Of a stretch of 64,000 bases of DNA, positions 21,570 through 51,027 are shown piece after piece. This DNA comes from Bacteroidota bacterium (GTDB lineage: Bacteria > Bacteroidota > Bacteroidia > 2-12-FULL-35-15), in assembly GCA_003151815.1 (NCBI GenBank), contig PLYN01000058.1, positions 27,811 through 91,810 on the forward strand, read 5' to 3'. The notes beneath the pieces were generated by a model that ran no database searches, was not told the origin of the DNA, and worked only from the letters and a program-made list of their open reading frames with translations. Every line of letters begins with the position of its first letter. The stretch's first letter is position 1. Both the position numbers and the translations under genes were made by a program.

Positions 21570-21574
21570 AAAAA

Positions 21575-21670: not shown

Positions 21671-21687
21671 CAAAAAATACAGAGATC

Positions 21688-22458: not shown

Positions 22459-22459
22459 A

Positions 22460-22993: not shown

Positions 22994-22999
22994 GAAAAA

Positions 23000-29736: not shown

Positions 29737-29802
29737 TTTAGTAGAATTCGTTGGTTTTCGTAGATTTGTGCATTCATCCAAACTTTATCAGGATAGTAAT
29801 TT

Positions 29803-30756: not shown

Positions 30757-30759
30757 AAA

Positions 30760-33196: not shown

Positions 33197-33982
33197 ATGG
33201 AATACAAAAACAAACAAAAAATATTACGAAAAAAATTGCTCTCGCTTTATTTTGAAGCGAATGCAGGCCATATAGGATGTTCTTTAAGTTGCATTGATCT
33301 ATTAATTGCTTTGTTTGAAATAAAGACAGTCAGTGAACGGGTAATTTTATCGAAAGGACATGCTGCTGCGGCTTTATACACCATATTAAATTCGACCGGG
33401 GAAATTAGTGATGAAACCTTGGCAACTTTTTATAAAAACGGAACCAAATTATCAGCACACCCATCTGCAAATTTGTTCACCAACATCCCGTTTGCTTTAG
33501 GTTCTTTAGGACATGGATTTCCAATTGGATGTGGAATAGCTTATGCGAATAAACTTCAAAACAATTCAGAAAATGTATATGTTCTTATGTCTGACGGTGA
33601 AACAAACGAAGGTACAACATGGGAAGCAGCACATTTTGCAGTTGCAAAAAAACTGGATAATATTGTTGTGTTGATAGATAAAAATAAATTACAAGGTTTT
33701 GGCTTCACCAAGGATATTTTAGGTGATACCGCAGATATTAATAAATGGAAAAGTATAGGATTTGATATTATTGAAGAGGATGGGCATGATGTTGAAAAAC
33801 TCTTTTCAAGTATCAACCTTCTCAAGAATAAAAAAAATGGAATGCCCAAATTAATTATTGCCAACACGGTAAAAGGCAAAGGTGTTAATTTTATGGAAAA
33901 TAAAATGGAATGGCACTATTTGCCAATGAATGAAGATATGTATAAAAAAGCTTTATCATCAGTAGAAGAAAATTATGCGTAA
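33197..33982 (+). CDS. transketolase, N-terminal (TPP-binding) subunit
   Basis: GHIGCSLSCIDL, SKGHAAAALY, GSLGHGF and MSDGETNEG. I prefer the ATG at 33197, because the ORF-track start overlaps the permease. Confidence 0.85.
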   Translation: MEYKNKQKILRKKLLSLYFEANAGHIGCSLSCIDLLIALFEIKTVSERVILSKGHAAAALYTILNSTGEISDETLATFYKNGTKLSAHPSANLFTNIPFALGSLGHGFPIGCGIAYANKLQNNSENVYVLMSDGETNEGTTWEAAHFAVAKKLDNIVVLIDKNKLQGFGFTKDILGDTADINKWKSIGFDIIEEDGHDVEKLFSSINLLKNKKNGMPKLIIANTVKGKGVNFMENKMEWHYLPMNEDMYKKALSSVEENYA

Positions 33983-34880
33983 CGAGTTTTCAAAAAAAGC
34001 CGAAGATATTATTTCTTCAAATCCTAAAACTGTATTTATTACAGGTGATTTGGGTTATAATGCATTAGAAAACATACAAAAAATTGCCAAAGAACGTTTT
34101 ATAAATGCCGGAGTAGCTGAACAAAATATGGTTGGTGTTGCTGCAGGATTGGCTTATAAAGGCTTTGAAACATTCGTATATAGTATTGCACCATTTGCAG
34201 TATTCCGATGTTTAGAACAAATTAAAATAGATGTTTGTATTCATAATTTGCCTGTTTATATTGTAGGTAATGGCGGTGGATATGGCTATGGAATTATGGG
34301 TGCAACTCATCACGCGATAGAAGATATTGCATGTTTAAGTCCACTGCCGAACATGACATGTTGGGTGCCTGCTTTTAAAGAAGACGTAGCTTTTTGTTTA
34401 AACCAAATAACTGATCAAAAAAAACCTGCGTATTTACGTTTGGGCTTGGGGAAACCTTATCCTGCTGCAATTGCGATTTCAAAAATCAATAAAATTGTTG
34501 CATCTGAAAGTCCAAGAATTACCATTATTGCTTTGGGTCCTGTTGTTCATAATGTATTAGAAGCTATTCCTGAAAATAAAAATATTGATTTATTTACTAT
34601 ACTTGCAATTCCACTTGTAAAATTAAGTGATGAACTAATAAAAAGTCTATCTGAAACAAAAAAAATAATTGTCATTGAGGAACATGTTGAACGTGGCGGA
34701 CTTGGAGAACATTTACTTTCAATTCTTGCTAAAATGTCCATCAAAAATATAGAATATGTTAGTTTACATGCCAAAGGATATCCGAGTAAATTATACGGAA
34801 ATCAAGCATTTCATCAAAAAGAAAGCGGTTTGGATTCAGAAAATATACGAAAAGAAATAACCAAATTATTGGAAGTTTAA
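33975..34880 (+). CDS. transketolase, C-terminal (pyrimidine-binding + C-terminal domain) subunit
   Basis: FINAGVAEQNMVGVAAGLA and GATHHAIEDIA. There is an 8-nt overlap with the N-terminal subunit gene. Confidence 0.85.
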   Translation: MRNEFSKKAEDIISSNPKTVFITGDLGYNALENIQKIAKERFINAGVAEQNMVGVAAGLAYKGFETFVYSIAPFAVFRCLEQIKIDVCIHNLPVYIVGNGGGYGYGIMGATHHAIEDIACLSPLPNMTCWVPAFKEDVAFCLNQITDQKKPAYLRLGLGKPYPAAIAISKINKIVASESPRITIIALGPVVHNVLEAIPENKNIDLFTILAIPLVKLSDELIKSLSETKKIIVIEEHVERGGLGEHLLSILAKMSIKNIEYVSLHAKGYPSKLYGNQAFHQKESGLDSENIRKEITKLLEV

Positions 34881-36848
34881 ATGGGCGAAATCAAAGAAAA
34901 AATACAACAACTACAAGGTCCCATTTTTATTTTTGGGGCCAGCGGATTTATTGGTGCTAACTTATTAAAAACTATTTTAACGTATCGTAAAGATTGTTAT
35001 GCTATAACTCACAACCCCAGATCTGCTTGGCGTTTAAAATTATTGGAAATCCCTTCTGAAAACATTTTACATTGTGATATCAATTATAAAAAATCCATTG
35101 AGTCCATATTTAAAGAACATACCCCACAAACTATTTTTAACCTTTCGGCTTACGGCGCATATAGTAAACAAAACAATACGAGTTTAATATATGAAACGAA
35201 TATTGTTGGTACTGTAAATATCCTCGAAATCTGCAAAAATATTAAAGCGTATATCCATGCCGGAAGCAGTTCGGAATATGGACTAAACAGCGATAACCCA
35301 AAAGAAAAGGACGAGTTAATACCTAATAGTCATTATTCTGTTTCTAAAATAACCACAGGGTATTTATTATCATTTTATGCACGTTTTCACAATTTACCTT
35401 GTTTAAATTTAAGATTATATTCAATCTATGGACCCTGGGAAGAACCTGATAGATTAATTCCAAAAATGGTTGAATGTGCCTTATCAAAAACATATCCTCC
35501 TTTTGTTAATCCTTCTACTTCACGTGATTTTGTTTATATTGATGATTGCGTTGAAGCATTTATCGATGCCGCCAATAATGTTAATAAGGAAAACTCCGGT
35601 CAATCAATAAACATAGGTAGCGGACAGAAAACTACTTTAGAGAAATTAGCAAATACATGTCAAAAAATATTTAATATTGAAAAAAATCCTATATGGGGAA
35701 ACATGCCTAACAGAACTTGGGATACTGCTGAATGGGTTGGTAATTATGGAAAAGCTAATGAATTAATTAATTGGCAACCAAAAACAAACCTTGAAGACGG
35801 TCTGAAAAAATATGCAGAATGGCAAAAAGAAATAAATTATACAAACAAAATATTGCCGGCTTTTCAATCTCCTAAAAAACTTGCTAAAATCAGTCCGATT
35901 ATCGCCTGCTATAAAGACGCGCAGGCTATACCCTTTATGTATAATCGTTTGGTGGAAACATTCCATAAAATAGGCTGCAATTATGAAATCATATTTGTAA
36001 ATGATAACTCACCGGACGATACAGAAAAGATACTTCAGGAAATTTGCGAAAAAGATATGAATGTTATTGCCATAAAGCATTCACGAAATTTTGGTTCTCA
36101 AGCAGCCTTCGTTAGCGGAATGGAGATTGCTACCGGAGATGCTGTTGTATTAATGGATGGGGATTTACAAGACCCTCCGGAAATGATTGCTCAATTTTTT
36201 GAGCAGTGGCAAAATGGATACCAGGTTGTTTATGGGAGACGAGTAAAAAGAGAAGCTTCTATGTTTATGAATTTTGCTTACAAGACTTTTTATAAAATAT
36301 TCAGTAAGATGTCTGATATTACTATTCCTCAAAATGCCGGGGACTTTTCTTTAATTGACACAAAAGTAGTTGAGCACATTGTTAATTTACCGGAAAAAGA
36401 ACAGTTTTTAAGGGGCTTAAGAGCTTGGGTAGGTTTTAAACAAACAGGAGTTGACTACATAAGACCAGAACGAATGTTTGGTGTTAGTACTAACAACCTA
36501 CGAAAAAATATATGGTGGGCTAAAAAAGGAATTTTATCATTTAGTTATTTACCGCTTGAGATTATGAGTTATACAGGTTTTTTCTTAACAATAGCTTCCT
36601 TTTTAGCCATCGCATTTCAAGTGGTTGGAAAAATAATGTATCCGGATTTACCGCATGGTATTCCAACCATTATTGTATTGGTATTATTTTTTGGTGGAGT
36701 GCAATTACTTGCTATTTCACTCATCGGCGAATATTTATCAAAGGTGGTTGATGAAACAAAATCTCGTCCGAAATTTATCAGAGATAAAGTAATTATTAAA
36801 GGACGAAGTATTGAAACGAACAGCGAATTGAAAAACCTTTTGAAATAG
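34881..36848 (+). CDS. fusion protein: NAD-dependent epimerase/dehydratase (SDR) + polyprenyl-phosphate glycosyltransferase (GT2, GtrB/ArnC type)
   Basis: Residues 1-320 form the SDR (GASGFIGANL, YSVSK). Residues ~336-655 form the GT2 (VNDNSPDDT, DGDLQDPP) and end in two TM helices. The ATG abuts the transketolase TAA. Confidence 0.8.
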   Translation: MGEIKEKIQQLQGPIFIFGASGFIGANLLKTILTYRKDCYAITHNPRSAWRLKLLEIPSENILHCDINYKKSIESIFKEHTPQTIFNLSAYGAYSKQNNTSLIYETNIVGTVNILEICKNIKAYIHAGSSSEYGLNSDNPKEKDELIPNSHYSVSKITTGYLLSFYARFHNLPCLNLRLYSIYGPWEEPDRLIPKMVECALSKTYPPFVNPSTSRDFVYIDDCVEAFIDAANNVNKENSGQSINIGSGQKTTLEKLANTCQKIFNIEKNPIWGNMPNRTWDTAEWVGNYGKANELINWQPKTNLEDGLKKYAEWQKEINYTNKILPAFQSPKKLAKISPIIACYKDAQAIPFMYNRLVETFHKIGCNYEIIFVNDNSPDDTEKILQEICEKDMNVIAIKHSRNFGSQAAFVSGMEIATGDAVVLMDGDLQDPPEMIAQFFEQWQNGYQVVYGRRVKREASMFMNFAYKTFYKIFSKMSDITIPQNAGDFSLIDTKVVEHIVNLPEKEQFLRGLRAWVGFKQTGVDYIRPERMFGVSTNNLRKNIWWAKKGILSFSYLPLEIMSYTGFFLTIASFLAIAFQVVGKIMYPDLPHGIPTIIVLVLFFGGVQLLAISLIGEYLSKVVDETKSRPKFIRDKVIIKGRSIETNSELKNLLK

Positions 36849-36855
36849 AAATTGT

Positions 36856-37608
36856 ATGCCAAAATATATTGAAGAAGGCTTCAAACCCATTAAGCACGAA
36901 CCTCCCACTACCCTAGTCAGGAAAATAAAATTTTACGGACGAATGCTGTTGGATCTGCAGATCCTGACTATCTATACCGATATAAAAGATGAACTTCCTA
37001 AATTTAAAGGAATGGTTTTAGATATTGGCTGTGGACAAAGTCCGTATAGATATTTACTTAACAAATCTGAAACTGAATACAAAGGAATTGATGTAATTGA
37101 AGCTTCCAGCTTTGATTATGTAAATAACGATATTACCCTTTTTAATGGCGAGACCATTCCATTCAATGATAATACCTTTGATGCCATAATATGTACGGAG
37201 GTTTTAGAACACGTATACAATTATCAGACCTTGGTTGATGAAATGTATCGCGTGTCTAAACCCGGAGCTAAAGCAGTTATTACTATTCCCTTTTCTGCAC
37301 GATATCATTATATTCCTTATGACTTTTTCAGATATACACCAAGTGCATTGGAAAAGATATTCTCTAAATTTTCTAAAGTAGAAATTACTCCGAGAGGTAC
37401 TGATGTTTTATCGATATGCGGAAAAATAATTGTTTTATTTTTCCGAAACATCATTCCCAATAGTTTTATGAGGGTGATCTGCCTACCCTTTTGGATATTG
37501 ATGTTGCCGGTTTTAGGAATAACAGTTATCATTGCCCATATAAGCAATATATTTAATTTAGGAAGCAATTTAGATCCTATAGGTTATACAATCAAGATTG
37601 TAAAATAA
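36856..37608 (+). CDS. class I SAM-dependent methyltransferase with hydrophobic C-terminal region
   Basis: VLDIGCGQSPY motif I and FDAIICTEVLEHV. The C-terminal sequence FMRVICLPFWILMLPVLGITVIIAHI is hydrophobic. Confidence 0.75.
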   Translation: MPKYIEEGFKPIKHEPPTTLVRKIKFYGRMLLDLQILTIYTDIKDELPKFKGMVLDIGCGQSPYRYLLNKSETEYKGIDVIEASSFDYVNNDITLFNGETIPFNDNTFDAIICTEVLEHVYNYQTLVDEMYRVSKPGAKAVITIPFSARYHYIPYDFFRYTPSALEKIFSKFSKVEITPRGTDVLSICGKIIVLFFRNIIPNSFMRVICLPFWILMLPVLGITVIIAHISNIFNLGSNLDPIGYTIKIVK

Positions 37609-37635
37609 TTAGAAAAATCAGACGCATTATTTACC

Positions 37636-39333
37636 TTACTTCCATTCGTAAATATAAATATTATAGTTTGGCTCAGGTTTATAATTAGCCAACTCATCTC
37701 GCCATACGTATTTGCTATGCTGCCCATCTATCATATCAACCAATCCTATAAGTTTGTAGTGTTCATTTACATATTTATTGGCCCATTCAAAAACATAATG
37801 ATCCACATTCGGCTGAACCATTAATGAAATTGGATGATCAAAATAAATTAAATACCTCGGTTTTGCTTTTTCAGTATCTCTAACAAATTCTCTCTGCCAA
37901 TCTTTATGCATTGGTACGTTTGTTACAAGTGCAGTAAAATAAGCGTGCCGCGACGGGGATTTCTTCTTTGTATAAAAATAAATTTGAGGTTCAGATCCAA
38001 TTAGCACTATATTATCTTCCGGTTTTGAATTTGCATTGATATAATTACCGATCTCCATTGCTTCTGGAAATGGGTTATTACCATACACTTGTCGTAAAAT
38101 TAATTCATAATTAGGATGAAAATAATATGATTTTAGCGTTTTTATATGATAAAAAACAAGAATTGAGAAAATAGATAAGTAAATATATTTGATGCTTAAT
38201 TTGCCAAGTTTAAATTTATTCTCAAAAATAGTAATTACACAATGATAGGTTAATCCTGCAACAACAGCTAAACCAGGTATAATTTGAATCCAATAATGTC
38301 CGTAAAAGAAATAGCCCGGCACTATAGTTAAAAATGAACATGCTAATAAAGTAATTCCATAAACTTTTAATTGATATGGGATAGGGCGGAATAAACAAAC
38401 AGCTATAGCTAATATTGAATGATACCAAAATAATTTATGATTTTGTAATATAGCATCGCGTGTATATCCAAAATACTTAATCCCTTCATCAAAAGTTATT
38501 AATTGTGAATATTGTTTTGAATATTCGAATGTCCAGTATAACATTTCATCAAAACCACCTTTTATTTTTATGATTAAAAAGAAAACGCAAACTATGGTAA
38601 TTCCCCCAAGCGAATAAGCAAAAATGTTTTTAAAAAATTCTTTATATTTCTTTTCCTTTTCAAATAAAAACTCTAAAAAAATTATTACTCCTCCCCATAC
38701 AGCAACAAAAACTGCAGTTGTCTTAATCATAACGGCCATGGCCATACTCATGCCGGTAAATAAATAAAGCAGAAAATGTTTTTTGCTTCGAGCATGTGCA
38801 TATAATAATAAACCTAAGCTTATAAATAACGCTACACCATGTTCTGATTGAACTGTAAAACCACTTAAACTTGGCGTTAATGAAACAAATGCCATTGTTG
38901 CTGCAGAAATAATTCCTGCGATAGGACTAAACATTTTTTTAGATGCGAAATACACAAATAGTATGGATAAAATATTAATCCACATAAAACCTGTATGAAC
39001 CCCTTTTACTGTTTCCCCAAAAAAATTAATTATGAATGCGTATAAATAAAAAATACCCGGAAATTTCATTTCATAAAAATCTTTATATGGAACTTTACCC
39101 TCGAGTAAAAGTTCACCCATATAGCTATAAATGCCTTCATCGCGTTCAAACGGGATTAATAAAAATTTTGAACGAATAGTGTAAACTAAAAAAACAAGTA
39201 TTAACAATAATGCTGTGCAAATTTTTTCCTCTAATGAAAAAGAAAATGTTTTACCGGCAATTGTAAAAGAACTGCTCGATTCGATGTTTCGAGTAATTTT
39301 TTGAGACTTATTATTACTAATTGCTTTTGCCAT
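37636..39333 (-). CDS. GT-C fold glycosyltransferase (ArnT / PMT_2-like)
   Basis: More than 12 TM helices. The acidic first-loop motif FERDEGIYSYMG...PYKD is typical of ArnT/PMT-family enzymes. Soluble C-terminal domain. Confidence 0.7.
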   Translation of the reverse strand: MAKAISNNKSQKITRNIESSSSFTIAGKTFSFSLEEKICTALLLILVFLVYTIRSKFLLIPFERDEGIYSYMGELLLEGKVPYKDFYEMKFPGIFYLYAFIINFFGETVKGVHTGFMWINILSILFVYFASKKMFSPIAGIISAATMAFVSLTPSLSGFTVQSEHGVALFISLGLLLYAHARSKKHFLLYLFTGMSMAMAVMIKTTAVFVAVWGGVIIFLEFLFEKEKKYKEFFKNIFAYSLGGITIVCVFFLIIKIKGGFDEMLYWTFEYSKQYSQLITFDEGIKYFGYTRDAILQNHKLFWYHSILAIAVCLFRPIPYQLKVYGITLLACSFLTIVPGYFFYGHYWIQIIPGLAVVAGLTYHCVITIFENKFKLGKLSIKYIYLSIFSILVFYHIKTLKSYYFHPNYELILRQVYGNNPFPEAMEIGNYINANSKPEDNIVLIGSEPQIYFYTKKKSPSRHAYFTALVTNVPMHKDWQREFVRDTEKAKPRYLIYFDHPISLMVQPNVDHYVFEWANKYVNEHYKLIGLVDMIDGQHSKYVWRDELANYKPEPNYNIYIYEWK

Positions 39334-40267
39334 AAAAATTAATTAAGGAATGATTTTTTATACAATCATAGGTTTCTGAAATGCCTTGAGATATTGGAGT
39401 AAATTTAAAATTAGGTACTACATTAATAAGCTTACTATTATCAAGATCAATCGCAGTATTATCACTTTCTCTTTTTGGGGTATAAACGATTTCAAAAGGT
39501 TCAGAAACAACTTTTTTAATCAAATCAACAATTTCATTAATTGATAAGGTATCATTTGATGAAAGGTTATATGTTTCGGATGTGTTTATATCTCTGATTA
39601 ACGATAGACTCAATAATTCGGCTACATCTTTTACATAAATATAATTACGAATATTAGAACCATCTCCAAAAATCTTAATTTCATGATCTGAAATAATTTT
39701 TTCTAAAAAAGTATTTATTAAACCTAAACCTTTTGACGTGTTTTGTCCTGCTCCGTATACATTAGAAATCCGATAAATATCTGAGTTAATACCATATTTT
39801 GTTTTATAGTATAATAAAAAATTTTCAATTGCTAATTTTGTAATTCCGTAAGGAGAGAAGGGATTTTTATTGAAATTTTCGTCAACCTTTTTATGAGTGG
39901 TACCATAAACTGTACCTGCACTGCTCAAATACACTATCTTTTTTATACCTAATTTGGACACAGCTTCCAAGAAAGTTAAAAATGGAACTAAATTTTTCTG
40001 TACATCTACTAATGGGTTTTCCCAGCTATTAGCCGGAATTGTTTCGGAGGCCAGATAATAAACAAGATCTATATTTTTAAAATAGTTTGCGTTTTCAACA
40101 TTATTAAGCAAATTTATTTGATTATATTCTATAGGAATATCTAAAATACTCTCTTTACTTCTACCAAATAAATGAAGATTAATATTGTCTTTTTTTAATA
40201 ATAAATTAGTTAAGTGACTGCCAATAAAACCATTACTTCCTATTATAGCTACGTTGATCTTATTCAT
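39317..40267 (-). CDS. NAD-dependent epimerase/dehydratase (SDR)
   Basis: GSNGFIGSHL Rossmann motif and YGITK catalytic YxxxK. 4-nt overlap with the upstream GT2 and 17-nt overlap with the downstream GT-C. Confidence 0.85.
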   Translation of the reverse strand: MNKINVAIIGSNGFIGSHLTNLLLKKDNINLHLFGRSKESILDIPIEYNQINLLNNVENANYFKNIDLVYYLASETIPANSWENPLVDVQKNLVPFLTFLEAVSKLGIKKIVYLSSAGTVYGTTHKKVDENFNKNPFSPYGITKLAIENFLLYYKTKYGINSDIYRISNVYGAGQNTSKGLGLINTFLEKIISDHEIKIFGDGSNIRNYIYVKDVAELLSLSLIRDINTSETYNLSSNDTLSINEIVDLIKKVVSEPFEIVYTPKRESDNTAIDLDNSKLINVVPNFKFTPISQGISETYDCIKNHSLINFYGKSN

Positions 40268-41190
40268 ATGTTGATGGTTTTTTCAATAACAACATACGGA
40301 CGTTGGCGTACTTCGTCGTAAATTCTTACAATATATTCACCAATAATACCTAAACAAATTAGGATTAACGAACTAAAAAAAGAAATTAATATTGCCAAGG
40401 TAGCAAAACCTTTAGCTTCAATTTTGTGAACAAAATATCCATAAATTGTATTTAAACTGTACATACACGCAAAACTAAAACCTACTAGCCCTAAAACTGT
40501 AATTAATCGAATTGGAGCACTTGAAAATGAAAATATACCATCTAAAGCAATTTTTAATAATTTTTTTAAGGTATAACCGGATTGCCCATCCACTCTATTA
40601 GCACGTTCATACTCAACACCAATTTGCTTAAAACCAACCCATGCTCTGATGCCTCTTAAAAATGGATTTTGCTCTTGTAGTTTAAGCATATTATCCACCA
40701 CGTGCTTTTTCATAACGCAAAAATCACCGCTATCAATCGGTATGTGAATATCGCTCATACCTTTTAATATTTTATAGAAACTACTATATGCCAAACGTTT
40801 TGTAAAAGATTCTTTACGTTTTTTTCTAACCCCATAAGCAACGTCATAGCCATTATCTAAAAATGTAAAAAAGTGCGGGAGTTGAGAAGGGGGATCTTGC
40901 AAATCATCGTCTATAACAGCAATATAATCGCCTGTGCAGTGGCTTAATGCAGTTTTTACAGCAATTTGATGGCCGAAATTTTTTGATAATTTTATTCCCT
41001 TTATATAGCTGTATTGTTTACTAAGTTCTTCGATTTTTTCGTAACTTTTATCACGGCTACCGTCATCTACTAAAATAACTTCCAAATTCCAGTTAGATTT
41101 CTGTCTTTGAGTATCAATAGCTTCTAGCAGCAAATTCATAAACGCTGCCGAATTGTATATAGGTACTAGTATCGAAATCTTTTTATTCAT
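40264..41190 (-). CDS. polyprenyl-phosphate glycosyltransferase (GT2, GtrB/ArnC type)
   Basis: ISILVPIYN, VDDGSRD and DDDLQDPP, with two C-terminal TM helices. A clear paralog of the GT2 half of 34881-36848. Confidence 0.85.
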   Translation of the reverse strand: MNKKISILVPIYNSAAFMNLLLEAIDTQRQKSNWNLEVILVDDGSRDKSYEKIEELSKQYSYIKGIKLSKNFGHQIAVKTALSHCTGDYIAVIDDDLQDPPSQLPHFFTFLDNGYDVAYGVRKKRKESFTKRLAYSSFYKILKGMSDIHIPIDSGDFCVMKKHVVDNMLKLQEQNPFLRGIRAWVGFKQIGVEYERANRVDGQSGYTLKKLLKIALDGIFSFSSAPIRLITVLGLVGFSFACMYSLNTIYGYFVHKIEAKGFATLAILISFFSSLILICLGIIGEYIVRIYDEVRQRPYVVIEKTINI

Positions 41191-41275
41191 TTATTTATTT
41201 TTAATACTTTTTAGTTAAAATCTAACATATCGTAGTTACGACTTACATGCTAATTGTTGATTTATCAAACTTAGC

Positions 41276-42223
41276 TCATTTATTAAGCTTAGTTGCGACT
41301 TTTGGGCTGAAATTATTTCTTTTAAAATATTTAAAAACAAACGAAAAGTAATATTGAACTCTATTTATAACACCCATAAGTGATTTATCGCTAAAAGGCA
41401 CATCGCCCCAAGGTGAAAGTTTTTTATAATGTAAATAGTTTTTTTTATATGGTGAAGGGTCGAGCCAAAACCAAGGTTTAAAAAGTCTATTGGCATAATG
41501 AATTATTTTAGGATTATTATATTCATTAAAAATCTCTTCTTTTGAATAAAATCTAAAATCAGCATTTCCTAGTCCGTATTTAACTAAACCTAACCTTGCA
41601 ATCACATTCCATCTATAAGGCACTATTTGCCAGGTATCTTGTAATATAATATTTAAGGAATCCTGATCGGGATATTCTAATAAATGCTCATTATCAATTT
41701 GATATTGATAGGCCTTTTGAGAAATTTTATCTTCTTGCCATTTTTTACAATCTATTAACATCATCCCTGCATTAAATGATTTTGTAAGATTAATTTTTTC
41801 TAAATGTTTTACCGGGCACAAAACCTCATAAGATGCTGATATGATATTCCCTTCCTGATTAACATTATACAACTCGGTTACATCCCCCTCAATGATCATG
41901 TCGCAATCTAAATACAACATTTTATCGATCAACAATGTATCTAATAAAAAGTATCTGTAATATGTGGCTTCGCTGTATATTTCAAATATTTTTAGTTTTT
42001 CAAAATATGCTCTATCAGGTTTTAAGAAATGTAATTTACAACCAAATTTAATTGCAACTTCTTCAAATCGATTTATATCTTCCGGAAGTATTCCTCCATC
42101 TACAATATAAATATCAAATAATTCCGGGTATTTTGTGTTTGACATTAGGGAATAAATCATTATTCCTAAGTGTTGGGCGTAGTTTTTATCAGTTGCACAA
42201 CCAATATTATATCTCGTAGTCAT
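41276..42223 (-). CDS. family 8 glycosyltransferase
   Basis: GCATDKNYAQHLG, YLDCDMII (DxD), FNAGMMLID and H-x-x-N region. Confidence 0.8.
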   Translation of the reverse strand: MTTRYNIGCATDKNYAQHLGIMIYSLMSNTKYPELFDIYIVDGGILPEDINRFEEVAIKFGCKLHFLKPDRAYFEKLKIFEIYSEATYYRYFLLDTLLIDKMLYLDCDMIIEGDVTELYNVNQEGNIISASYEVLCPVKHLEKINLTKSFNAGMMLIDCKKWQEDKISQKAYQYQIDNEHLLEYPDQDSLNIILQDTWQIVPYRWNVIARLGLVKYGLGNADFRFYSKEEIFNEYNNPKIIHYANRLFKPWFWLDPSPYKKNYLHYKKLSPWGDVPFSDKSLMGVINRVQYYFSFVFKYFKRNNFSPKVATKLNK

Positions 42224-42227
42224 AAAT

Positions 42228-43121
42228 TTATTTCTTTTTATAAATGACTAATGCAGTTCTTTTGCCAACGATATCATTAAAAAATTTAAACGAAAATTTT
42301 AAAATTGACGAGGTAAAATTACTGTTTATTCCCGTTTTACGTTTAAAATATTGAATGAGATAGTCAAAGCCTTCGTATTTAAAATCTTGCACTTGTAAGT
42401 CAAAATGGGAAGCCATTTTTGTTAAACTATCTTTGTTCCATAATCCCATATGATGGGGCGGTAAGTTTAATGTATGGTACTTATCGTATTTCATAAAATA
42501 AGGTTCGTTATTAGGCACTGCAATAATTAAAACACCATCTTTTTTTAGCATTTTCACCATGCAACTTATAAATTCACCGGGCTGTTTAACATGTTCTAAA
42601 ATTTGGAATCCGGTAACGTAATCAAACTTCCCAATATTTTTTTCGGCAAAAATTTCAATAGGTTCATTACTAAATTCAACACCTTTGTTCTTTAATAAGT
42701 CAGCTGCAAAATCACTTTTATCAAGTCCATAGCAATGACAATTTTTTCCATTTAACTCATCAAAGAAACTTCCCGACCCACAGCCAACATCCAAAACGGA
42801 TGAATTATCCTTAATCATATTAGCACCCTCTTTAAACTCCCATTTTGTATCTTGATACAATCTATTTTTATTACTCTTATATAAATCAATATAAAACTTA
42901 TTATCGCCCTCTATGGATAATGGATAATAAAAACGAAATCCTGTTTCGTTACATTGCATGATTTTTACCTCGTTCACATTTTTAAACAGATACGATATAT
43001 TTAAATTATAATTTTTAAAATATTTTTTTATAATTTTTCCAACATTTAAAACTTCAATTTCTTTTACTGTAGCGTTTTTTATTAAGGTGTTTTCTATCAT
43101 TTTATAAAAATAATTAAACAT
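42228..43121 (-). CDS. class I SAM-dependent methyltransferase with ~100-aa N-terminal extension
   Basis: VLDVGCGSGSF, FDYVTGFQILEHV and DGVLIIAVPN. Confidence 0.75.
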   Translation of the reverse strand: MFNYFYKMIENTLIKNATVKEIEVLNVGKIIKKYFKNYNLNISYLFKNVNEVKIMQCNETGFRFYYPLSIEGDNKFYIDLYKSNKNRLYQDTKWEFKEGANMIKDNSSVLDVGCGSGSFFDELNGKNCHCYGLDKSDFAADLLKNKGVEFSNEPIEIFAEKNIGKFDYVTGFQILEHVKQPGEFISCMVKMLKKDGVLIIAVPNNEPYFMKYDKYHTLNLPPHHMGLWNKDSLTKMASHFDLQVQDFKYEGFDYLIQYFKRKTGINSNFTSSILKFSFKFFNDIVGKRTALVIYKKK

Positions 43122-43132
43122 TTAAACATATG

Positions 43133-43140
43133 CAAAATTA
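43133..43140 (-). promoter_or_regulatory. candidate -7 box (TAatTTTG on minus strand) for the 43121..37636 operon
   Basis: Plus-strand caaaatta lies 12 nt upstream of the ATG at 43121, implying a very short leader. Confidence 0.3.
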
Positions 43141-43242
43141 TAAAATCTATCTTAGTTCTAACTTGATAGTGAAAACAATCAATTAATTTGCTATGATACT
43201 TAAATAATAGCTATTTTCGTTTTCTTAAATAAATGAAATTTT

Positions 43243-43938
43243 ATGTCTGAATTTCTTAATCCAAAACTAAGTTCTCCTTTTTATTTTACAAGAAAAGGGT
43301 TATATGGAGCTGCAATTATTTTTTCCAAATCTGCTAAAGGTGGGCGTTTATTGGATTTTGGCTGTGGTTCAAAACCATATAGATCTTTATTTAAGGTAGA
43401 TGAATATATTGGAATAGATTATGAAAATGAAGGGCATCCTCATGACGAGGAGCAAATAGATATTTTTTATGATGGCGGTAAATTACCCTTTAAAGATGCC
43501 GAATTTGATTATGTTTTATGTACAGAAGTGTTTGAGCATTTGTTTGATCTAGATGATAAACTTGTTGAATTTAATAGAGTTCTTAAGGATAATGGGTTGA
43601 TGTTTGTGACTTGCCCTTTTGTATGGAACGAACATGAAATACCTTATGACTATGCGCGATATACTTCGTTTGCATTAAACGATAAATTTAAAAAGAAAGG
43701 TTTTGAAGTTGTATCATACAATAAAGGGGGGACTTTTATTGAAACGTATACACAAACTTTCTTTTTATATTTTTCGAGAAAAGACACCAAATTTAAAAGT
43801 GATAAAATCGGTATATTTAAAAAGAGTGTAATTTTTATGGTTAACTTATTTGGAAAAATAATGAACAAACTATTGCCGAATAACGATTCGCTTTATTTAA
43901 CTAATATTTACGTTGTAAGAAAATCAAAAAACCTATAA
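43243..43938 (+). CDS. class I SAM-dependent methyltransferase (paralog of 36856-37608)
   Basis: LLDFGCGSKPY, FDYVLCTEVFEHL and IPYDYARYT align with VLDIGCGQSPY, FDAIICTEVLEHV and IPYDFFRYT of the other copy. Confidence 0.75.
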   Translation: MSEFLNPKLSSPFYFTRKGLYGAAIIFSKSAKGGRLLDFGCGSKPYRSLFKVDEYIGIDYENEGHPHDEEQIDIFYDGGKLPFKDAEFDYVLCTEVFEHLFDLDDKLVEFNRVLKDNGLMFVTCPFVWNEHEIPYDYARYTSFALNDKFKKKGFEVVSYNKGGTFIETYTQTFFLYFSRKDTKFKSDKIGIFKKSVIFMVNLFGKIMNKLLPNNDSLYLTNIYVVRKSKNL

Positions 43939-43959
43939 TGTTTCAAATTATTTAAAGCA

Positions 43960-46569
43960 ATGATACAAGTATTTAATATAAAAAAAGAATATTTAAGATA
44001 TTCCATCATGACATGGTTTGGAATATTAGTTGCCATAATATCAAGTAAAATCATTTCATCAGTTTATGTAACTAATATTGAAGATGCAAATAAAATAGCC
44101 CAAGATATTTTACTAAATCCAGCAATGGCGCAGCCAGAACCTATGGAGAAAGCGGTTTTTTTTGGAGGTATAATTATAACAGTACTATCTTTGTTTTTAT
44201 TTTATTTTATTTTAGATCGTTTTTTAAAAAAAAATGACAATGAGATAAAAGATTCATTGTTTAATATTGTTACTACTATTAACGTTGTAATTAGCTGTTA
44301 TTTCCTGTACTATTGTTTTATTACCGTTAACCCTTTTTTTGCAGCACCTCAAAATTCGCATGATGCTCTTGCTAAAACCAATTTCGATTTTTATTTTTTT
44401 CAAACTTTTTTATATAAGCGATTAGTATTATACACTATTATTTTATTCCCACTATTGGCTTTTCTATTAATTAAAAACATTAAACTTTCAGAGCACCTTA
44501 ATTTATTATTGAAAAAAACTGTATTTGTTTTATGTCTTGGTTTAAGCGTATTAGCCTCAGCCATATCAATTTTTAAATTCCCTTATACCTATGAAAACAA
44601 ATACGATTTTAATGCTATTTATTATTCAGTAGTTCAGGTATATAATGGCTTCCCATTATTAGTAGATGGTTTTACAAATACGTATGGATTGTACCCACAT
44701 TTTGTAATGCCAATTTTAAAATTAACCGGATTAAGTGTATTAAGTTTTTCAATGACAATGAGTATTTTATTGTTTTTTTGTTTTTGTTTTTTGTACTATT
44801 TCATGAATAAAATCATTAATAACAAACTCATTTTATTGTTTGGTTTTTGTTTAGTGTATTTTATGTGCTATTCATTTCAAACAACCACATTAAATTATGA
44901 TGCCGCTTTCTCTTGCCATCCTGTGCGTTGGATTATGCCATTATTACTATTTGCATACATAGTTTATTATATGTCAAATCAAATGAAAGCTAATTTTATG
45001 TTTAAGAAGTGGCGTTTTTTTAAAGTGATAGAAATCATCCCTATTAAAATAGTATTCTTTTTTGTTTTTGCATTTGGCGTATTATGGAACCCTGACTTTG
45101 GATTTTTTTCTTTTTTAAGTTTAATCGCTTTTTATGTTTTTTATGAGTTTGATATAAATGAAATTAAAAAATCATTGATTCAGCTATTGTTTAATGTAAT
45201 ACAAGCATTTTTTTTATTAGTAATAGCATTTATTTTGTATTATGTTTATATAAAATTCGCATATCATCAAGCTCCCGATTTTTCTCTTTTATATGAAACA
45301 ATTAGTACTTATTCAGTAATTGGTTTTGGTATGCTTCCAATGCCAACAACCATGCATCCGTGGATGTTGATAGCATTGATTTATGGTATAGGTTGGGTTA
45401 TATCTATTATTAATTTTTTAAATAATCGTAAAACGCAATTTGCATTAGCTATTTTTGTTTTAACCTTTTTAGGAACTATCGGATTGTCTTATTACCAAGG
45501 CAGGAGCCATAATTGGCAATTAATGGTTTGTAACCTTTCTGCATTTATCTTATTGCCTATTTACGCGGATAAACTATTGATAACCGCAAGAGGACATAAG
45601 TTATTTATACCAATTTTTTCGATGTCACTCTTTGTAATTGCATTTGCTCCTTTTCAATTATTAGGAAGTTGGACTAAGCTACAGGAATTAGTGTTTACTA
45701 AAAAAGATAAAGCCATTAATCAAATAGAACAAAATCATATATATTCTACAGCCTCTGCAATTGATAAGTTATGTGAAGATGGAGAAAAAATATATATCCT
45801 ATCTGCCGATTATTATCAAGGGTTATATCACACTTTATCTAAAACGGCTTCGGTTGCTAATCCTGGGTTGGGCGATTTATATACTAAAAAACAATACGAA
45901 CTAATTATTGAAAAACTAAAAAATGAAAATCAAAAACTGTTCTTGGAACCTCAGTTTTACCGCCCAAAGGATACAAAATTATTAAACGTTATAGGAGCCT
46001 ATTACGAACTCAATGCAATTGAAAATATGCCGACATTGTATTATTATAAAAAAAGAGAGTTTGGTAAATATCAACCTAAATTAATAAATGATGCCAGCAC
46101 CCTTTTTTATATTAATACCAATGCAAATGGCAATGATAATTTTAAATTATATGAAGCTGCAGTAAAACCAATACAATTAGATAACGCATTTACTATTGAT
46201 GTTATCTTTACTTCACCTTCAAACATTATCACAAACATTAATACTGGTGGTACAATATTATCTAATTTAGATGGCTACAAAGGTTTTGTAGTTCAACAAC
46301 AAAAAGATAATCCAAGTCAATTCATTTTTGGATTTAAAGGCCGGGGGATTTTATGTAACGTTGAATTAAACAAACAAACAAAAATGACTTTTAAGGTAGA
46401 CGGCATAAATATTTCGTGTTATGTAAATGATATGTTGCAATCTAAATCAATGGTTACAGAGGTATTTGAAAATAGCCAACAACCTATTTGTGTGGGAAGT
46501 ATACAAAACATGTCGAATTTCTTTTTAGGAAATATTGATGAAATAAAAATATCAAATGGAGCTAAATGA
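43960..46569 (+). CDS. 869-aa polytopic membrane protein with C-terminal LamG-like (concanavalin A-type) domain
   Basis: About 14 or more hydrophobic helices over residues 1-560, then a soluble region. The C-terminal ~150 aa carry the LamG pattern (...MTFKVDGINISCYVNDML...PICVGS...FFLGNIDEIKISN). Confidence 0.7.
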   Translation: MIQVFNIKKEYLRYSIMTWFGILVAIISSKIISSVYVTNIEDANKIAQDILLNPAMAQPEPMEKAVFFGGIIITVLSLFLFYFILDRFLKKNDNEIKDSLFNIVTTINVVISCYFLYYCFITVNPFFAAPQNSHDALAKTNFDFYFFQTFLYKRLVLYTIILFPLLAFLLIKNIKLSEHLNLLLKKTVFVLCLGLSVLASAISIFKFPYTYENKYDFNAIYYSVVQVYNGFPLLVDGFTNTYGLYPHFVMPILKLTGLSVLSFSMTMSILLFFCFCFLYYFMNKIINNKLILLFGFCLVYFMCYSFQTTTLNYDAAFSCHPVRWIMPLLLFAYIVYYMSNQMKANFMFKKWRFFKVIEIIPIKIVFFFVFAFGVLWNPDFGFFSFLSLIAFYVFYEFDINEIKKSLIQLLFNVIQAFFLLVIAFILYYVYIKFAYHQAPDFSLLYETISTYSVIGFGMLPMPTTMHPWMLIALIYGIGWVISIINFLNNRKTQFALAIFVLTFLGTIGLSYYQGRSHNWQLMVCNLSAFILLPIYADKLLITARGHKLFIPIFSMSLFVIAFAPFQLLGSWTKLQELVFTKKDKAINQIEQNHIYSTASAIDKLCEDGEKIYILSADYYQGLYHTLSKTASVANPGLGDLYTKKQYELIIEKLKNENQKLFLEPQFYRPKDTKLLNVIGAYYELNAIENMPTLYYYKKREFGKYQPKLINDASTLFYINTNANGNDNFKLYEAAVKPIQLDNAFTIDVIFTSPSNIITNINTGGTILSNLDGYKGFVVQQQKDNPSQFIFGFKGRGILCNVELNKQTKMTFKVDGINISCYVNDMLQSKSMVTEVFENSQQPICVGSIQNMSNFFLGNIDEIKISNGAK

Positions 46570-46643
46570 ATTTTGTTTTAGATTAAAAATTCTTGATATT
46601 TATTGGTATAATGGCAAAAAACAGTTGGTGAAACTGCCTCTAT

Positions 46644-46864
46644 GAGTTTCGCAAACGTATTGGAGCAGAGGGCGTAAAATTAATTTTAAAAGAAAGTATC
46701 CTTGTGAATGGAAAAGATGCAGATGAGGATACCTTGAGCGGAGACACAACTGTTCAAGAAAAAAATATCCCTTATCCGATGATAAATTACATAAAAAAAT
46801 CATAGACAAGTGTCAATCAATTGCAGCTAGCGAACAAGTAGAACTCCACATTGATTTTTTTCAG
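46644..46864 (+). pseudogene. IS5-family transposase relic (frameshifted internal fragment)
   Basis: EFRKRIGAEGVKLILKESILVNG...GDTTVQEKNIPYP, then after a frame shift DDKLHKKIIDKCQSIAASEQVEL. This matches the FRKRIG...DTTVQEKNI.FPTD.KL block of IS5-family transposases. There are stops upstream and no DDE domain. Confidence 0.6.
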
Positions 46865-46876
46865 TAAAATTCAAGT

Positions 46877-46917
46877 ATAAAAAACAAACACTCATACCTT
46901 TTCGATATGAGTGTTTG
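46877..46917 (-). terminator. intrinsic terminator of the DUF3127 gene
   Basis: 12-bp perfect stem caaacactcata/tatgagtgtttg with a 9-nt loop. A T-run follows on the minus strand. Confidence 0.6.
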
Positions 46918-46969
46918 TGAAGTCTAAATATAAGTTGACGTTTTCACGTTTTTAAATTTAGAGATATTA

Positions 46970-51012: not shown

Positions 51013-51027
51013 TTTTTATTTTGTTTT

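Follow-up and report, generated by a model that had tools for sequence, protein, structure and literature searches.

The Pgf protein glycosylation system of streptococci combines an epimerase with one GT-A enzyme and two GT-C enzymes (PMC12041528). For a novel GT-C family whose C-terminus carries a carbohydrate-binding module, GT136 is a precedent (PMC11127046). In the stretch of Bacteroidota DNA analyzed here (64,000 nucleotides, referred to as the window), we identified an island of eleven genes that joins two gene modules, each of which is found separately elsewhere. Module A consists of tktN-tktC-SDR·GT2-MT1 plus the 869-aa protein BIG, and module B (MT2-GT8-GT2b-SDR2-PMT_2 GT-C plus the divergent MT3) is nested within it, between MT1 and BIG. 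The rest of the window otherwise carries housekeeping genes. The island genes are as follows.

33197..33982, + strand: tktN, ThDP-binding N-terminal subunit of a split transketolase-like enzyme, module A (Pfam Transketolase_N, 6e-27)
33975..34880, + strand: tktC, pyrimidine-binding/C-terminal subunit of the split transketolase-like enzyme, module A (Pfam Transket_pyr and Transketolase_C)
34881..36848, + strand: fused extended SDR (epimerase type) and polyprenyl-phosphate GT2 (ArnC/GtrB/PgfS-like), module A (Pfam Epimerase, 5e-41; Glycos_transf_2, 2.5e-27)
36856..37608, + strand: MT1, class I SAM methyltransferase, fourth gene of the module A cassette (Pfam Methyltransf_11/23)
37636..39333, - strand: PMT_2/ArnT-family GT-C glycosyltransferase, 565 aa, module B (Pfam PMT_2, 30.8 bits)
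39317..40267, - strand: SDR2, GalE-like NDP-sugar 4-epimerase, module B (Pfam Epimerase, 5e-43)
40264..41190, - strand: GT2b, polyprenyl-phosphate glycosyltransferase (GtrB/ArnC/PgfS-like), module B (PDB GtrB and ArnC; NCBIfam PgfS)
41276..42223, - strand: GT8, retaining Leloir glycosyltransferase, soluble, module B (Pfam Glyco_transf_8, 1e-42)
42228..43121, - strand: MT2, soluble class I SAM methyltransferase, first gene of the module B operon (Pfam Methyltransf_23, 3e-21)
43243..43938, + strand: MT3, soluble class I SAM methyltransferase, divergent from MT2 and traveling with module B (Pfam Methyltransf_11/23)
43960..46569, + strand: BIG, 869 aa, about 13 TM helices, candidate GT-C-like transferase of an unclassified family, module A (AlphaFold/Foldseek)

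All 11 ORFs have the coordinates and overlaps given in an earlier interpretation of the letters alone (the sequence-only reading), and Pfam profile searches agree with its domains, including the GT8 and the three class I methyltransferases. The junctions comprise an 8-nt overlap (tktN/tktC), an abutting pair (tktC/SDR-GT2), a 17-nt overlap (GT-C/SDR2), and a 4-nt overlap (SDR2/GT2b). That reading had held that the genes should differ from their flanks in composition and be co-conserved in relatives, and both were found. The seven genes at 37.6-46.6 kb, described as A+T-rich, have a G+C content of 0.291 versus 0.354 in the 40 other window ORFs (Mann-Whitney p = 2e-6) and a GC3 of 0.226 versus 0.274 (p = 0.006); by the G+C comparison, the 33.2-37.6 kb part is indistinguishable from the remainder of the window. 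Also as had been read, no ArnA-formyltransferase, ArnB, or ArnD-type gene was found among the island genes by Pfam/NCBIfam profile matches. Overall, the interpretation is partly supported. The two parallel modules that it proposed do stand alone elsewhere, and yet they are not its three transcription units, since module B with MT3 lies inside module A. The first SDR and GT2 form a single fused ORF of 655 aa. The supposed IS5 relic was not found at 46570-46969, where the longest ORF is 69 aa and has no transposase match, and the upstream LPG_synthase_TM/GT2/OppC genes showed no co-conservation with the cassette.

Module B alone, in the same gene order and at 66-89% identity, is present in the cultured Aurantibacillus circumpalustris, where its neighbors are unrelated genes. 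The GT2-SDR-GT-C trio recurs in locus L143, the PMT_2 GT-C gene follows GT2b-SDR2 in both L142 and L143, GT8 and MT2 are syntenic in L142 (83% and 74% identical, respectively), and the divergent MT3/MT2 pair is found in Aurantibacillus (MT3 80% identical) and in L003. SDR2 is 75% identical to its Aurantibacillus counterpart, has UDP-glucose 4-epimerase 4zrm as its top PDB match (E = 8e-36), and carries an SSAGTVYG motif without the dehydratase-type acid residue. GT2b matches GtrB (5ekp, E = 2e-57) and ArnC (9hwj, E = 6.5e-43) over its full length, including the TM hairpin (helices 225-243 and 265-283), which supports the proposed logic of SDR, polyprenyl-phosphate GT2, and GT-C. The PMT-like GT-C is likewise borne out, scoring 30.8 bits against a Pfam cutoff of 26.1; its ERDEG motif (E62-R63-D64-E65-G66) is invariant in 24 relatives, which are annotated as "glycosyltransferase family 39" or "ArnT family". 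GT8 has no predicted TM helices and weakly matches an LPS 3-alpha-galactosyltransferase (82 bits versus an NCBIfam cutoff of 461).

In module A, the SDR·GT2 fusion is conserved in >100 protein clusters of 652-666 aa, with an invariant DGDLQDPPE motif and NCBIfam matches over residues 332-639 to PgfS (3e-70) and ArnC (4e-41). Like GT2b, it ends in two hydrophobic helices (567-585 and 597-615), as the sequence-only reading had noted of both GT2s. Its SDR domain aligns best with "SSSSVYG / YGPWGRPD"-type epimerases but reads SSSEYG / YGPWEEPD. The GT2 domains of the two modules are 36% identical, but the SDR domains are only 22% identical, so the duplicated sets that had been proposed are not a clean duplication. 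MT1, 38% identical to MT3, has one C-terminal TM helix (208-226), and in 58 of 80 loci the cassette is accompanied by a class I methyltransferase cluster. The cassette is widespread in metagenomic loci (>583 relatives of the fusion in metagenomic data), and we found no paper on the tktN-tktC-SDR·GT2-MT arrangement. Next to it lie polytopic proteins (PMT_2, YfhO, and BIG types), with GtrA in six loci. The complete order tktN-tktC-SDR·GT2-MT-BIG is contiguous in another MAG (L061); BIG also directly follows the cassette in L007 and L017, and cassette-then-BIG recurs in L011. A BIG-like protein occurs in about 9-12 of 80 cassette loci and the cassette in only about 6 of 58 BIG loci; the two are non-obligate partners.

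BIG is the second large polytopic protein that had been recognized, with about 13 predicted TM helices; on the periplasmic side it has an alpha/beta domain and a C-terminal jelly-roll of the LamG/CBM type, which has a weak Pfam Laminin_G_3 match and matches LamG/CBM folds in structure comparison. For its TM part, sequence searches of Pfam, NCBIfam, and PDB gave no match, and profile comparison with the PMT_2 family found nothing; BIG belongs to a rare, unclassified family. With AlphaFold models (pLDDT 89.6 and 88.7), the top four Foldseek matches of the TM domain were AglB, PglB (two entries), and STT3, with Pmt1/2 and DPY19 lower. These GT-C matches are weak (E = 0.014-0.35, TM-score 0.34-0.36), and the predicted fold is closest, if weakly, to that of OST-type GT-C enzymes.

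The most likely function of both modules, in our view, is to charge a lipid carrier in the membrane with sugars, which are then added to the cell envelope from outside, and we modestly favor the full two-module scheme set out below, in which our leading guess for the acceptor is a surface polysaccharide or LPS. A more doubtful proposal is that the acceptors are proteins, with both polytopic enzymes O-glycosylating periplasmic or surface proteins in regions rich in Ser/Thr, on the pattern of streptococcal Pgf or actinobacterial Ppm/Pmt. PgfS is the top NCBIfam match of both GT2s (2e-68 for GT2b), the composition of epimerase, GT-A, and two GT-Cs recalls Pgf, PMT_2 includes protein O-mannosyltransferases, and oligosaccharyltransferases are the top fold matches of BIG. 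However, the PgfS scores (237 and 231 bits) are far under the curated cutoff of 500, the Pgf GT-C enzymes are of the YfhO type, unlike PMT_2 or BIG, and the OST sequence signature is absent from BIG in profile searches. LamG/CBM-type domains are more typical of glycan-binding enzymes (compare the CBM of GT136), GT8 resembles LPS core transferases, and polysaccharide sugar genes are present in the related loci L143 and L061.

Equally tentative is the proposal that BIG is no glycosyltransferase but a polysaccharide polymerase/ligase, a flippase/exporter, or a membrane-anchored protein that binds or senses glycans and only happens to occur with glycan genes, with the PMT_2 enzyme serving both donor modules. 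Its lack of a sequence link to any GT family and its weak fold matches would fit this, as would the usual first-loop Asp, which is Asn in the BIG of the window and is kept in just 28 of 42 relatives. Moreover, L003 has a single ArnC-like GT2 (the fusion) with both polytopic proteins, and around many BIG loci no GT2 was detected. Nevertheless, an ArnC-like GT2 lies ≤10 kb from BIG in 30 of 58 family loci (52%), against a chance expectation that we estimate at about 1-2%, and in L005 the neighbors of BIG are a GT2, GtrA, genes of the CDP-sugar type, and another kind of ThDP enzyme (TPP_enzyme type). GT-C enzymes are the only coherent fold matches, all others having probabilities of <0.3 (transporters below about 0.1); the topology is that of PglB/AglB; and the conserved periplasm-facing residues E60, E63, and D/E379, with the invariant R323 and R515, would fit a putative donor-phosphate binding site.

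It is improbable that the island is part of a conventional O-antigen or capsule locus (Wzx/Wzy- or ABC-dependent) with the polytopic proteins as polymerase or ligase. Surface-polysaccharide loci do typically show low G+C and a variable-looking set of genes and commonly include GT8 and methyltransferases, and rml-type genes lie beside some relatives; however, neither the island nor the larger window ORFs scanned yielded an initiating phosphoglycosyltransferase, a Wzx, Wzy, Wzz, or Wza protein, or an ABC exporter, each GT2 is of the type that transfers a monosaccharide to polyprenyl phosphate, and module B stands alone amid unrelated genes in Aurantibacillus.

Module A also encodes the split transketolase-like enzyme. 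The closest PDB match of its subunits is the Carboxydothermus split transketolase (tktN to the N chain 6yak, E = 2e-48; tktC to 6yaj, E = 1.5e-30). In the alignment to 6yak, tktN keeps the GH, KGH, HP, DG...N, and WH motifs and the donor-side His residues. Among 66 cassette homologues of tktC, the ThDP-activating Glu and a conserved His are invariant, canonical His461 is Gly in all 66, Asp469 is Met in 55, and canonical Ser385 and Arg520 are not retained. Hence tktC keeps its ThDP residues, whereas those that canonically bind acceptor and phosphate are systematically substituted. The involvement of transketolase subunits that had been proposed is supported by their nearly obligatory linkage to the SDR·GT2 fusion, but the enzyme is not a canonical transketolase. 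Although real split transketolases work in primary metabolism, the window is otherwise housekeeping, and the tkt part matches the flanks in G+C, a chance-neighbor pentose-phosphate enzyme in an island making ordinary, merely methylated hexoses is very improbable and largely refuted by these replacements, by the finding that, of 48 metagenomic loci with sufficient flank, 47 have both subunits adjacent to the fusion (across 40-70% identity), and by loci (L003, L059, and several others) in which the fusion gene itself splits the two tkt genes.

In the two-module scheme that we favor, module B would be a classical three-component system in which SDR2 supplies an NDP-sugar, GT2b puts its sugar on polyprenyl phosphate at the inner membrane face, and, after flipping, the PMT_2/ArnT-family GT-C moves it to an envelope acceptor; GT8 and the soluble MT2 and MT3 probably make or modify acceptor or donor in the cytoplasm. 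The island encodes no flippase (GtrA, SMR, MATE, or Wzx), which speaks against the scheme, and we infer this step. In module A, the epimerase-type SDR domain and the ThDP-dependent heterodimer may remodel a common nucleotide sugar; judging solely by family membership, ketol (C2) transfer to a keto or aldehyde sugar intermediate is the likeliest reaction and would yield a sugar with a branch or a lengthened chain. The fused GT2 would load this sugar on polyprenyl phosphate, membrane-anchored MT1 would methylate it, and BIG, as a divergent GT-C-like transferase, would deliver the sugar to a glycan acceptor bound by its LamG domain. Such a role would accord with the topology that BIG shares with PglB and AglB (13 TM helices and a C-terminal periplasmic domain), and GT136, which was discovered similarly, provides a precedent for it.

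ruvC (29182-29781, minus strand) and a DUF3127 gene (46970-47341) flank the eleven genes of the island, whose coordinates are identical to those of the sequence-only reading and whose profile assignments are as follows.

Genes of the island, with position in the window, strand and assignment (Pfam/NCBIfam)
33197-33982, plus strand: tktN, Transketolase_N subunit
33975-34880, plus strand: tktC, Transket_pyr and Transketolase_C subunit
34881-36848, plus strand: fusion, 655 aa, Epimerase and Glycos_transf_2 (SDR-GT2)
36856-37608, plus strand: MT1, class I methyltransferase
37636-39333, minus strand: PMT_2 protein, 565 aa
39317-40267, minus strand: SDR2, Epimerase-family SDR
40264-41190, minus strand: GT2b, Glycos_transf_2
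41276-42223, minus strand: GT8, Glyco_transf_8
42228-43121, minus strand: MT2, methyltransferase
43243-43938, plus strand: MT3, methyltransferase
43960-46569, plus strand: BIG, 869 aa, whose sole profile match is a weak Laminin_G_3 at the C terminus

Much of what had been read by eye stands. The 8-, 17-, and 4-nt overlaps and one abutting junction all follow from the coordinates, the ERDEG motif occupies residues 62-66 of the PMT_2 protein, and a hydropathy scan found that each ArnC-type GT2 closes with two transmembrane (TM) helices; the same scan gave MT1 one C-terminal TM helix and BIG about 13 helices. The suspected A+T-richness of the 37.6-46.6 kb part is borne out (G+C of 0.291 versus 0.354, p = 2e-6; GC3, p = 0.006), and the composition of the 33.2-37.6 kb part resembles that of the remainder of the window. 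Two sets of SDR plus GT2 are indeed present, but the first is a single fused protein rather than two, and the pair is not a clean duplication, with GT2 domains that are 36% identical and SDRs that are only 22% identical; MT1 and MT3 share 38% identity. The IS5 relic placed downstream of the island has to be withdrawn, as the interval 46570-46969 holds no open reading frame (ORF) longer than 69 aa and its longest ORF has no transposase match. Because there is no transposase ORF there and the window has neither tRNA genes nor Rfam matches, we see no sign of a mobile-element boundary at the island. In the 400 bp that follow the island, only one element strongly resembles a terminator: a 15-bp perfect hairpin with a T-run at 46884-46918 (minus strand), 3' of the DUF3127 gene.

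Related loci resolve the island into two nested modules. In a Bacteroidota MAG (L061), the order tktN-tktC-SDR·GT2-methyltransferase-BIG is uninterrupted, and three further loci (L007, L017, and L011) likewise have a BIG homologue immediately after the cassette. Conversely, Aurantibacillus circumpalustris, a cultured organism whose genome is complete, carries an operon MT2-GT8-GT2b-SDR2-GT-C that ends in an orthologue of the PMT_2 protein (66% identical), with MT3 divergent and upstream, in the gene order of the window minus strand; the five other module B proteins are 74 to 89% identical to those of the window, and the surroundings contain neither transketolase genes nor BIG. In a second genome (L143), the GT2-SDR-GT-C trio stands alone amid rhamnose-type sugar genes. 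As each module thus occurs separately elsewhere, we read the island as module A, consisting of the cassette and BIG, with module B and its MT3 inserted between MT1 and BIG. The arrangement varies: in a 61%-related MAG (L003), SDR2 and GT2b are missing, and the fusion and a methyltransferase separate tktN from tktC. A phage-type integrase gene lies 1.3 kb past the end of module B in A. circumpalustris (L142:12986-13984), which, together with the low G+C content in the window, fits a mobile module B.

Module B appears to follow the conventional three-component plan, with additional genes. GT2b matches GtrB, a solved polyprenyl-phosphate glucosyltransferase, over residues 4-302 (5ekp, E = 2e-57), and ArnC over residues 3-306 (9hwj, E = 6.5e-43), that is, at full length including the C-terminal TM pair. 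The two island GT2s match Pfam Glycos_transf_2 with E-values of 2.5e-27 and 4.6e-32, and both carry the DxD-type motif (D-x-D-L-Q-D/N-P-P), as DDDLQDPPS in GT2b and as DGDLQDPPE, invariant, in the fusion family. Both are hence assigned to the polyprenyl-phosphate GT2 type (GtrB/ArnC/DPMS) and predicted to transfer to polyprenyl phosphate. The nearest relatives of SDR2 are UDP-hexose 4-epimerases (4zrm, E = 8e-36), and it has a GalE-like SSAGTVYG motif with no dehydratase-type acid residue. The PMT_2 protein scores above its Pfam threshold (30.8 bits versus a cutoff of 26.1) and has several hundred relatives, labelled "glycosyltransferase family 39" or "ArnT family," which carry PF13231 and often PF02366 as well; against the PDB, its family profile gave no more than a marginal match to Pmt2 (E = 0.029). 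Residues E62, R63, D64, E65, and G66, in the first extracytoplasmic loop after TM1, are invariant in 24/24 PMT_2 sequences down to 52% identity. GT8 matches its family profile (Glyco_transf_8, 1e-42, 147 bits versus a cutoff of 24.3), and the soluble GT8, MT2, and MT3 travel with the GT2-SDR-GT-C trio, where they may act in the cytoplasmic building or methylation of the donor or acceptor.

The cassette of module A is widespread. More than 100 protein clusters have at least 59% identity to the fusion, one of them from the cultured Arcicella aurantiaca, and metagenome contigs hold more than 583 relatives. We surveyed the best 80 of these metagenomic relatives, 48 of which had enough flank for counting transketolase genes: tktN and tktC both lie within 4 kb of the fusion in 47/48 loci, and the remaining one has tktN. 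When all neighboring ORFs of the 80 loci were clustered, the recurring families were the fusion (80), tktN (60), tktC (59), and a class I methyltransferase (58), and no further family recurred in more than 7 of the 80. No nucleotide-sugar synthesis gene, sought as a clue to the substrate, is conserved beside the cassette across the 80 loci; the starting substrate is therefore probably a common nucleotide sugar. A full-text literature search found no account of this gene set or of a characterized equivalent.

At least one large polytopic protein lies near the cassette, a few kilobases away at most, in the majority of loci with enough flank. By iterated profile search, at least 16 of these neighbors are PMT_2-like; others are YfhO proteins (Pfam E-values of 1e-49 and 7e-56) or BIG-like (about 9 to 12), and the remainder have no profile match. 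GtrA occurs in six cassette loci. Such surroundings are those expected where GT-C-type enzymes draw on a lipid-linked monosaccharide donor. A. aurantiaca has the same cassette with a different downstream toolkit in a cultured organism: its locus (L059:13065-21986) reads tktN-SDR·GT2-tktC, followed by a 553-aa polytopic protein without a Pfam match and, further downstream, an Acyl_transf_3 protein, a 246-aa GT2, UDP-galactopyranose mutase, an 878-aa protein with neither a Pfam match nor similarity to BIG, and an MBOAT protein.

The closest solved relatives of tktN and tktC are the two chains of the split transketolase of Carboxydothermus (E = 2e-48 and 1.5e-30). Aligned to 6yak, tktN keeps the GH, KGH, HP, DG..N, and WH motifs, which cover thiamine diphosphate (ThDP) binding, the metal, and the donor-side histidines, and tktC has an invariant ThDP-activating Glu and an invariant His in 66/66 cassette sequences. 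The acceptor side differs. Ser385, His461, Asp469, and Arg520 (E. coli numbering), which we take to be the acceptor and sugar-phosphate residues, hold the phosphate and C2 hydroxyl of the acceptor sugar in transketolase. In the 66 cassette sequences, His461 is replaced by Gly in all 66 and Asp469 by Met in 55, Glu468 is Ile or Val and Ser385 is Met or Asn in most, and the Arg520 position is variable, with Leu in the window protein; the stretch THAGLTVGEDGASHQ of the solved enzyme corresponds to the cassette signature GNGGGYGYG(I/V)MGxTHH in tktC. As the canonical residues have been replaced, the acceptor pocket has been rebuilt with aromatic and hydrophobic residues. Because the acceptor and phosphate residues are lost, tktN/tktC should be called transketolase-like rather than transketolase (EC 2.2.1.1).

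A thiamine biosynthesis operon is also present in the window (16950-24109, plus strand), running from ThiC (16950-18806) to a ThiH-like radical SAM protein (23000-24109), and is followed by S-adenosylhomocysteine hydrolase at 25799-27118; a TPP riboswitch was found upstream of thiC neither at the gathering threshold nor at a permissive E-value. Both pathways serve island enzymes, and their nearness is probably a coincidence.

The fused SDR domain aligns best with epimerases bearing SSSSVYG and YGPWGRPD motifs (5u4q and 6zl6); its best PDB matches are a near tie between depositions named dehydratase and epimerase. Its own motifs, SSSEYG and YGPWEEPD, are both invariant in the fusion family and lean towards a 4-epimerase. 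The change of the Arg of YGPWGRPD to Glu makes a uronic acid doubtful as its substrate.

The BIG family is small. It comprises 94 clusters (90% identity), each of them either without a name or labelled "LamG domain," and 53 loci among 185,579 species genomes, nearly all of them MAGs, from Bacteroidota, Fibrobacterota, Elusimicrobiota, Spirochaetota, Smithella, and Geobacter; its TM domain is matched by 874 of 1.84 billion representative proteins. The membrane part has no Pfam or NCBIfam match in the window protein, 10 distant relatives likewise lack a Pfam match, and phmmer and profile searches of the PDB gave no sequence match for the TM part. Comparison by hhalign gave no support for kinship with the PMT_2 protein and its family (probability of <2%), and it linked BIG to neither of the large membrane proteins encoded next to the cassette in Arcicella. 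Across Pfam, NCBIfam, the PDB, and hhalign, the sequence of BIG does not place it in a described GT-C family. The public record of this protein (P0001, 853 aa) begins 16 codons later, leaving out 43960-44007; the longer start is probably right, because relatives with 88 to 89% identity are called at 869 aa.

The predicted structure of BIG resembles the GT-C fold weakly. AlphaFold models were confident, with a pLDDT of 89.6 (full length) or 88.7 (residues 1-605), and show TM1 at residues 2-35, then a loop whose short helix spans residues 40-50, and TM2, with a soluble alpha/beta region and the LamG domain after residue 605. The topology fits the GT-C plan of a cytoplasmic N terminus, a long first outer loop, and an extracytoplasmic C-terminal domain, the orientation being deduced from the helix count and the basic N terminus. 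The C terminus matches LamG/CBM-type jelly rolls, including arabinanase and sialidase CBMs. As full-length Foldseek searches matched the LamG domain only, the TM domain was modelled separately; its top four matches were AglB (5gmy, E = 0.014), PglB (3rce and 5ogl, E = 0.13), and STT3 (8agb, E = 0.35), all GT-C-fold oligosaccharyltransferases but weak, with TM-scores of 0.34 to 0.36. Pmt1/2 and DPY19 came lower in the list, and the other matches were unrelated, mostly transporters, with probabilities of <0.3.

That BIG is not a transferase is a minority reading to which we give real weight, given these low scores and position 39, that of the usual first-loop Asp, which is Asp in 28/42 sequences and Asn in the window protein. 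On the other side, the end of the same loop is strongly conserved (E60 in 88% and E63 in 98%, within PEPxE), D/E379 of NPDFG is conserved in 100%, and further conserved periplasm-side features include invariant R323 and R515 as well as H466/H517. An ArnC-like GT2 also lies within 10 kb of BIG in 30/58 family loci (roughly 1 to 2% estimated by chance).

Other BIG loci differ in content. In L005 (10001-22697), the genes that come after a 34%-identical homologue encode a DegT-type enzyme, a nucleotidyltransferase, a member of the Epimerase family that may be a sugar 4,6-dehydratase, an SDR, an ArnC-like GT2, GtrA, a methyltransferase, a reductase resembling RmlD, a TPP_enzyme-family protein of 599 aa, an HpcH aldolase, and a HAD hydrolase. 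These CDP-sugar-type genes with GT2, GtrA, and a different ThDP enzyme echo the ThDP theme of the window, and the locus seems to encode a pathway whose product, a branched or dideoxy sugar, feeds the same kind of membrane protein. Two Flavipsychrobacter-type MAGs carry two tandem BIG paralogues (L029:7347-12571 and L037:5509-10822), and no ArnC-like GT2 was detected within 10 kb of BIG in either.

From these gene-level observations, we infer the sugar chemistry, the transferase activity of BIG, the flipping step, and the acceptors. In module B, an epimerase would supply the sugar for a polyprenyl-phosphate sugar, which would be flipped and then transferred by the PMT_2 enzyme. In module A, the SDR domain and the transketolase-like heterodimer would turn a common nucleotide sugar into a two-carbon branched or extended sugar, the fused GT2 would load it onto polyprenyl phosphate, the membrane-anchored MT1 would methylate it, and BIG would move it to a glycan recognized by the LamG domain. 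We lean slightly toward this scheme for the two modules as a whole. More tentative, and rather less probable than its opposite, is the specific proposal that the cassette makes an undescribed lipid-linked sugar by ThDP-dependent C2 ketol transfer, with methylation, and that BIG represents a new GT-C family placing this sugar on a surface glycan.

The acceptor might instead be a protein, as in Pgf or PMT systems, an option that the relationship of one GT-C candidate to PMT enzymes keeps in view; the carbohydrate-binding character of the LamG domain favors a glycan, and we consider a protein acceptor rather unlikely. A conventional O-antigen or capsule locus is also unlikely: glycosyltransferases and methyltransferases are present, but neither the island nor the larger window ORFs scanned, which are housekeeping genes (thi operon, SAH hydrolase, thr operon, and aro genes), encode an initiating transferase, Wzx, Wzy, or an exporter. 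That tktN/tktC are simply a housekeeping transketolase, as their family membership would allow, is very improbable and largely refuted by their linkage to the fusion and the active-site changes. For the scheme of two lipid-linked donor modules, no flippase is encoded in the island.

Three genes lie directly upstream of tktN, on the same strand (29803-33180, plus) and with gaps of 3, 0, and 16 nt. They encode LPG_synthase_TM, which is MprF-flippase-like; a GT2 of 389 aa that has 4 TM helices; and an isolated OppC-type ABC permease extended at its N terminus. As general parts of the system these three were rejected, since the roughly 140 related loci contain no homologue of any of them; the MprF-flippase-like protein might nevertheless act for the flippase-less island. 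Between thrC and thrB (49843-51339, minus strand), 3 kb from the island, are a 389-aa SDR (Epimerase/NAD_binding_4) and a 103-aa SMR (Multi_Drug_Res) membrane protein; because the SMR family includes the ArnE/ArnF flippases for lipid-linked sugars, this pair might be related to the island. A 633-aa protein at 3875-5776 (plus strand), with a Sulfatase domain at 270-540 behind an N-terminal region, has an EptA/LtaS-type envelope-modifying architecture.

Glycosylation from polyprenyl-phosphate sugars outside the cytoplasm shapes lipopolysaccharide (LPS), teichoic acids, arabinan, and surface proteins and thereby antibiotic resistance, phage receptors, and antigenicity. The logic of the system proposed here is known, and its component parts appear to be new. 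To our knowledge, all characterized systems use ordinary nucleotide-sugar chemistry or PRPP; if the genomic context of the cassette has been read correctly, it would add a new reaction type in lipid-linked donor synthesis and predict an undescribed envelope sugar, and the BIG family would add a GT-C-like clan that currently has no profile model. The main interest lies in the widespread transketolase-like cassette, which, if the proposal holds, would represent a broadly distributed way of making branched or chain-extended envelope sugars, used by Bacteroidota and by other environmental bacteria. The predictions are testable in cultured organisms, namely, A. aurantiaca for the cassette and A. 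circumpalustris for module B.

Among known systems, Pgf of Streptococcus mutans (PgfS, PgfE, PgfM1, and PgfM2) combines an epimerase, a GT-A that produces a lipid-linked monosaccharide, and two polytopic GT-C enzymes acting outside the membrane (PMC12041528). PgfS is the best NCBIfam match of both island GT2s; because the scores fall below half the curated cutoff, the relationship is best regarded as analogy, not orthology. The Pgf GT-Cs are YfhO-type, whereas the island candidates are one PMT_2 protein and one unclassified protein, and Pgf lacks a ThDP enzyme, an SDR-GT2 fusion, GT8, and methyltransferases; the island host, moreover, is a Gram-negative member of the Bacteroidota. The Gtr (GtrA/GtrB/Gtr-type) and Arn (ArnC/ArnE-F/ArnT) systems share with the island the full-length match of GT2b and the fusion GT2 to GtrB/ArnC, including the two C-terminal TM helices, and the membership of the 565-aa enzyme in the ArnT/PMT_2 family. 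However, the island has no GtrA or SMR flippase and additionally has a ThDP enzyme, three methyltransferases, and GT8. The sequence-only reading had held that the genes for L-Ara4N are absent, and no island protein indeed has a Formyl_trans, DegT/aminotransferase, or polysaccharide-deacetylase domain (ArnA formyltransferase, ArnB, and ArnD, respectively).

In the Rhizobium LpsL/RgtE/RgtA-D and Bacillus CsbB/YfhO systems, LPS or teichoic acids are decorated through a 4-epimerase for nucleotide sugars, a GT2 of the polyprenyl-phosphate type, and GT-Cs, and we know of no ThDP enzyme involved in either. The island resembles them in that the fused SDR is nearest to SSSSVYG/YGPWGRPD epimerases and that YfhO neighbors the cassette in other loci. 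For the chemistry, YerE of yersiniose synthesis and the E1-like AviB1/AviB2 provide examples of a ThDP enzyme adding a two-carbon unit to an SDR-made 4-keto nucleotide sugar, and the L005 homologue of BIG, beside a TPP_enzyme-type protein, CDP-sugar-type genes, GT2, and GtrA, recalls them. The island enzyme differs in being of the transketolase family, with split N and C subunits, rather than of the acetolactate synthase or E1 type, and our literature search found no C2-transfer activity for a transketolase-like protein in a glycan locus.

The closest precedent for BIG is GT136, from the three-component pentofuranose system of Citrobacter youngae, which uses a lipid-linked monosaccharide donor and an auxiliary epimerase (PMC11127046). 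Its GT-C has 11 TM helices, with a catalytic Asp conserved close to TM1 and a beta-rich carbohydrate-binding module at the C terminus, and shows no sequence similarity to earlier families; a polyprenyl phosphoribose synthase produces the donor from PRPP, and the flippase is of the MATE type (PMC11127046). The donor there does not come from an ArnC-type GT2, and BIG differs in its approximately 13 TM helices and other conserved motifs (PEPxE, NPDFG, and GRSH). GT136 is nonetheless the best parallel, and it was recognized from predicted structure and gene context before any assay (PMC11127046).
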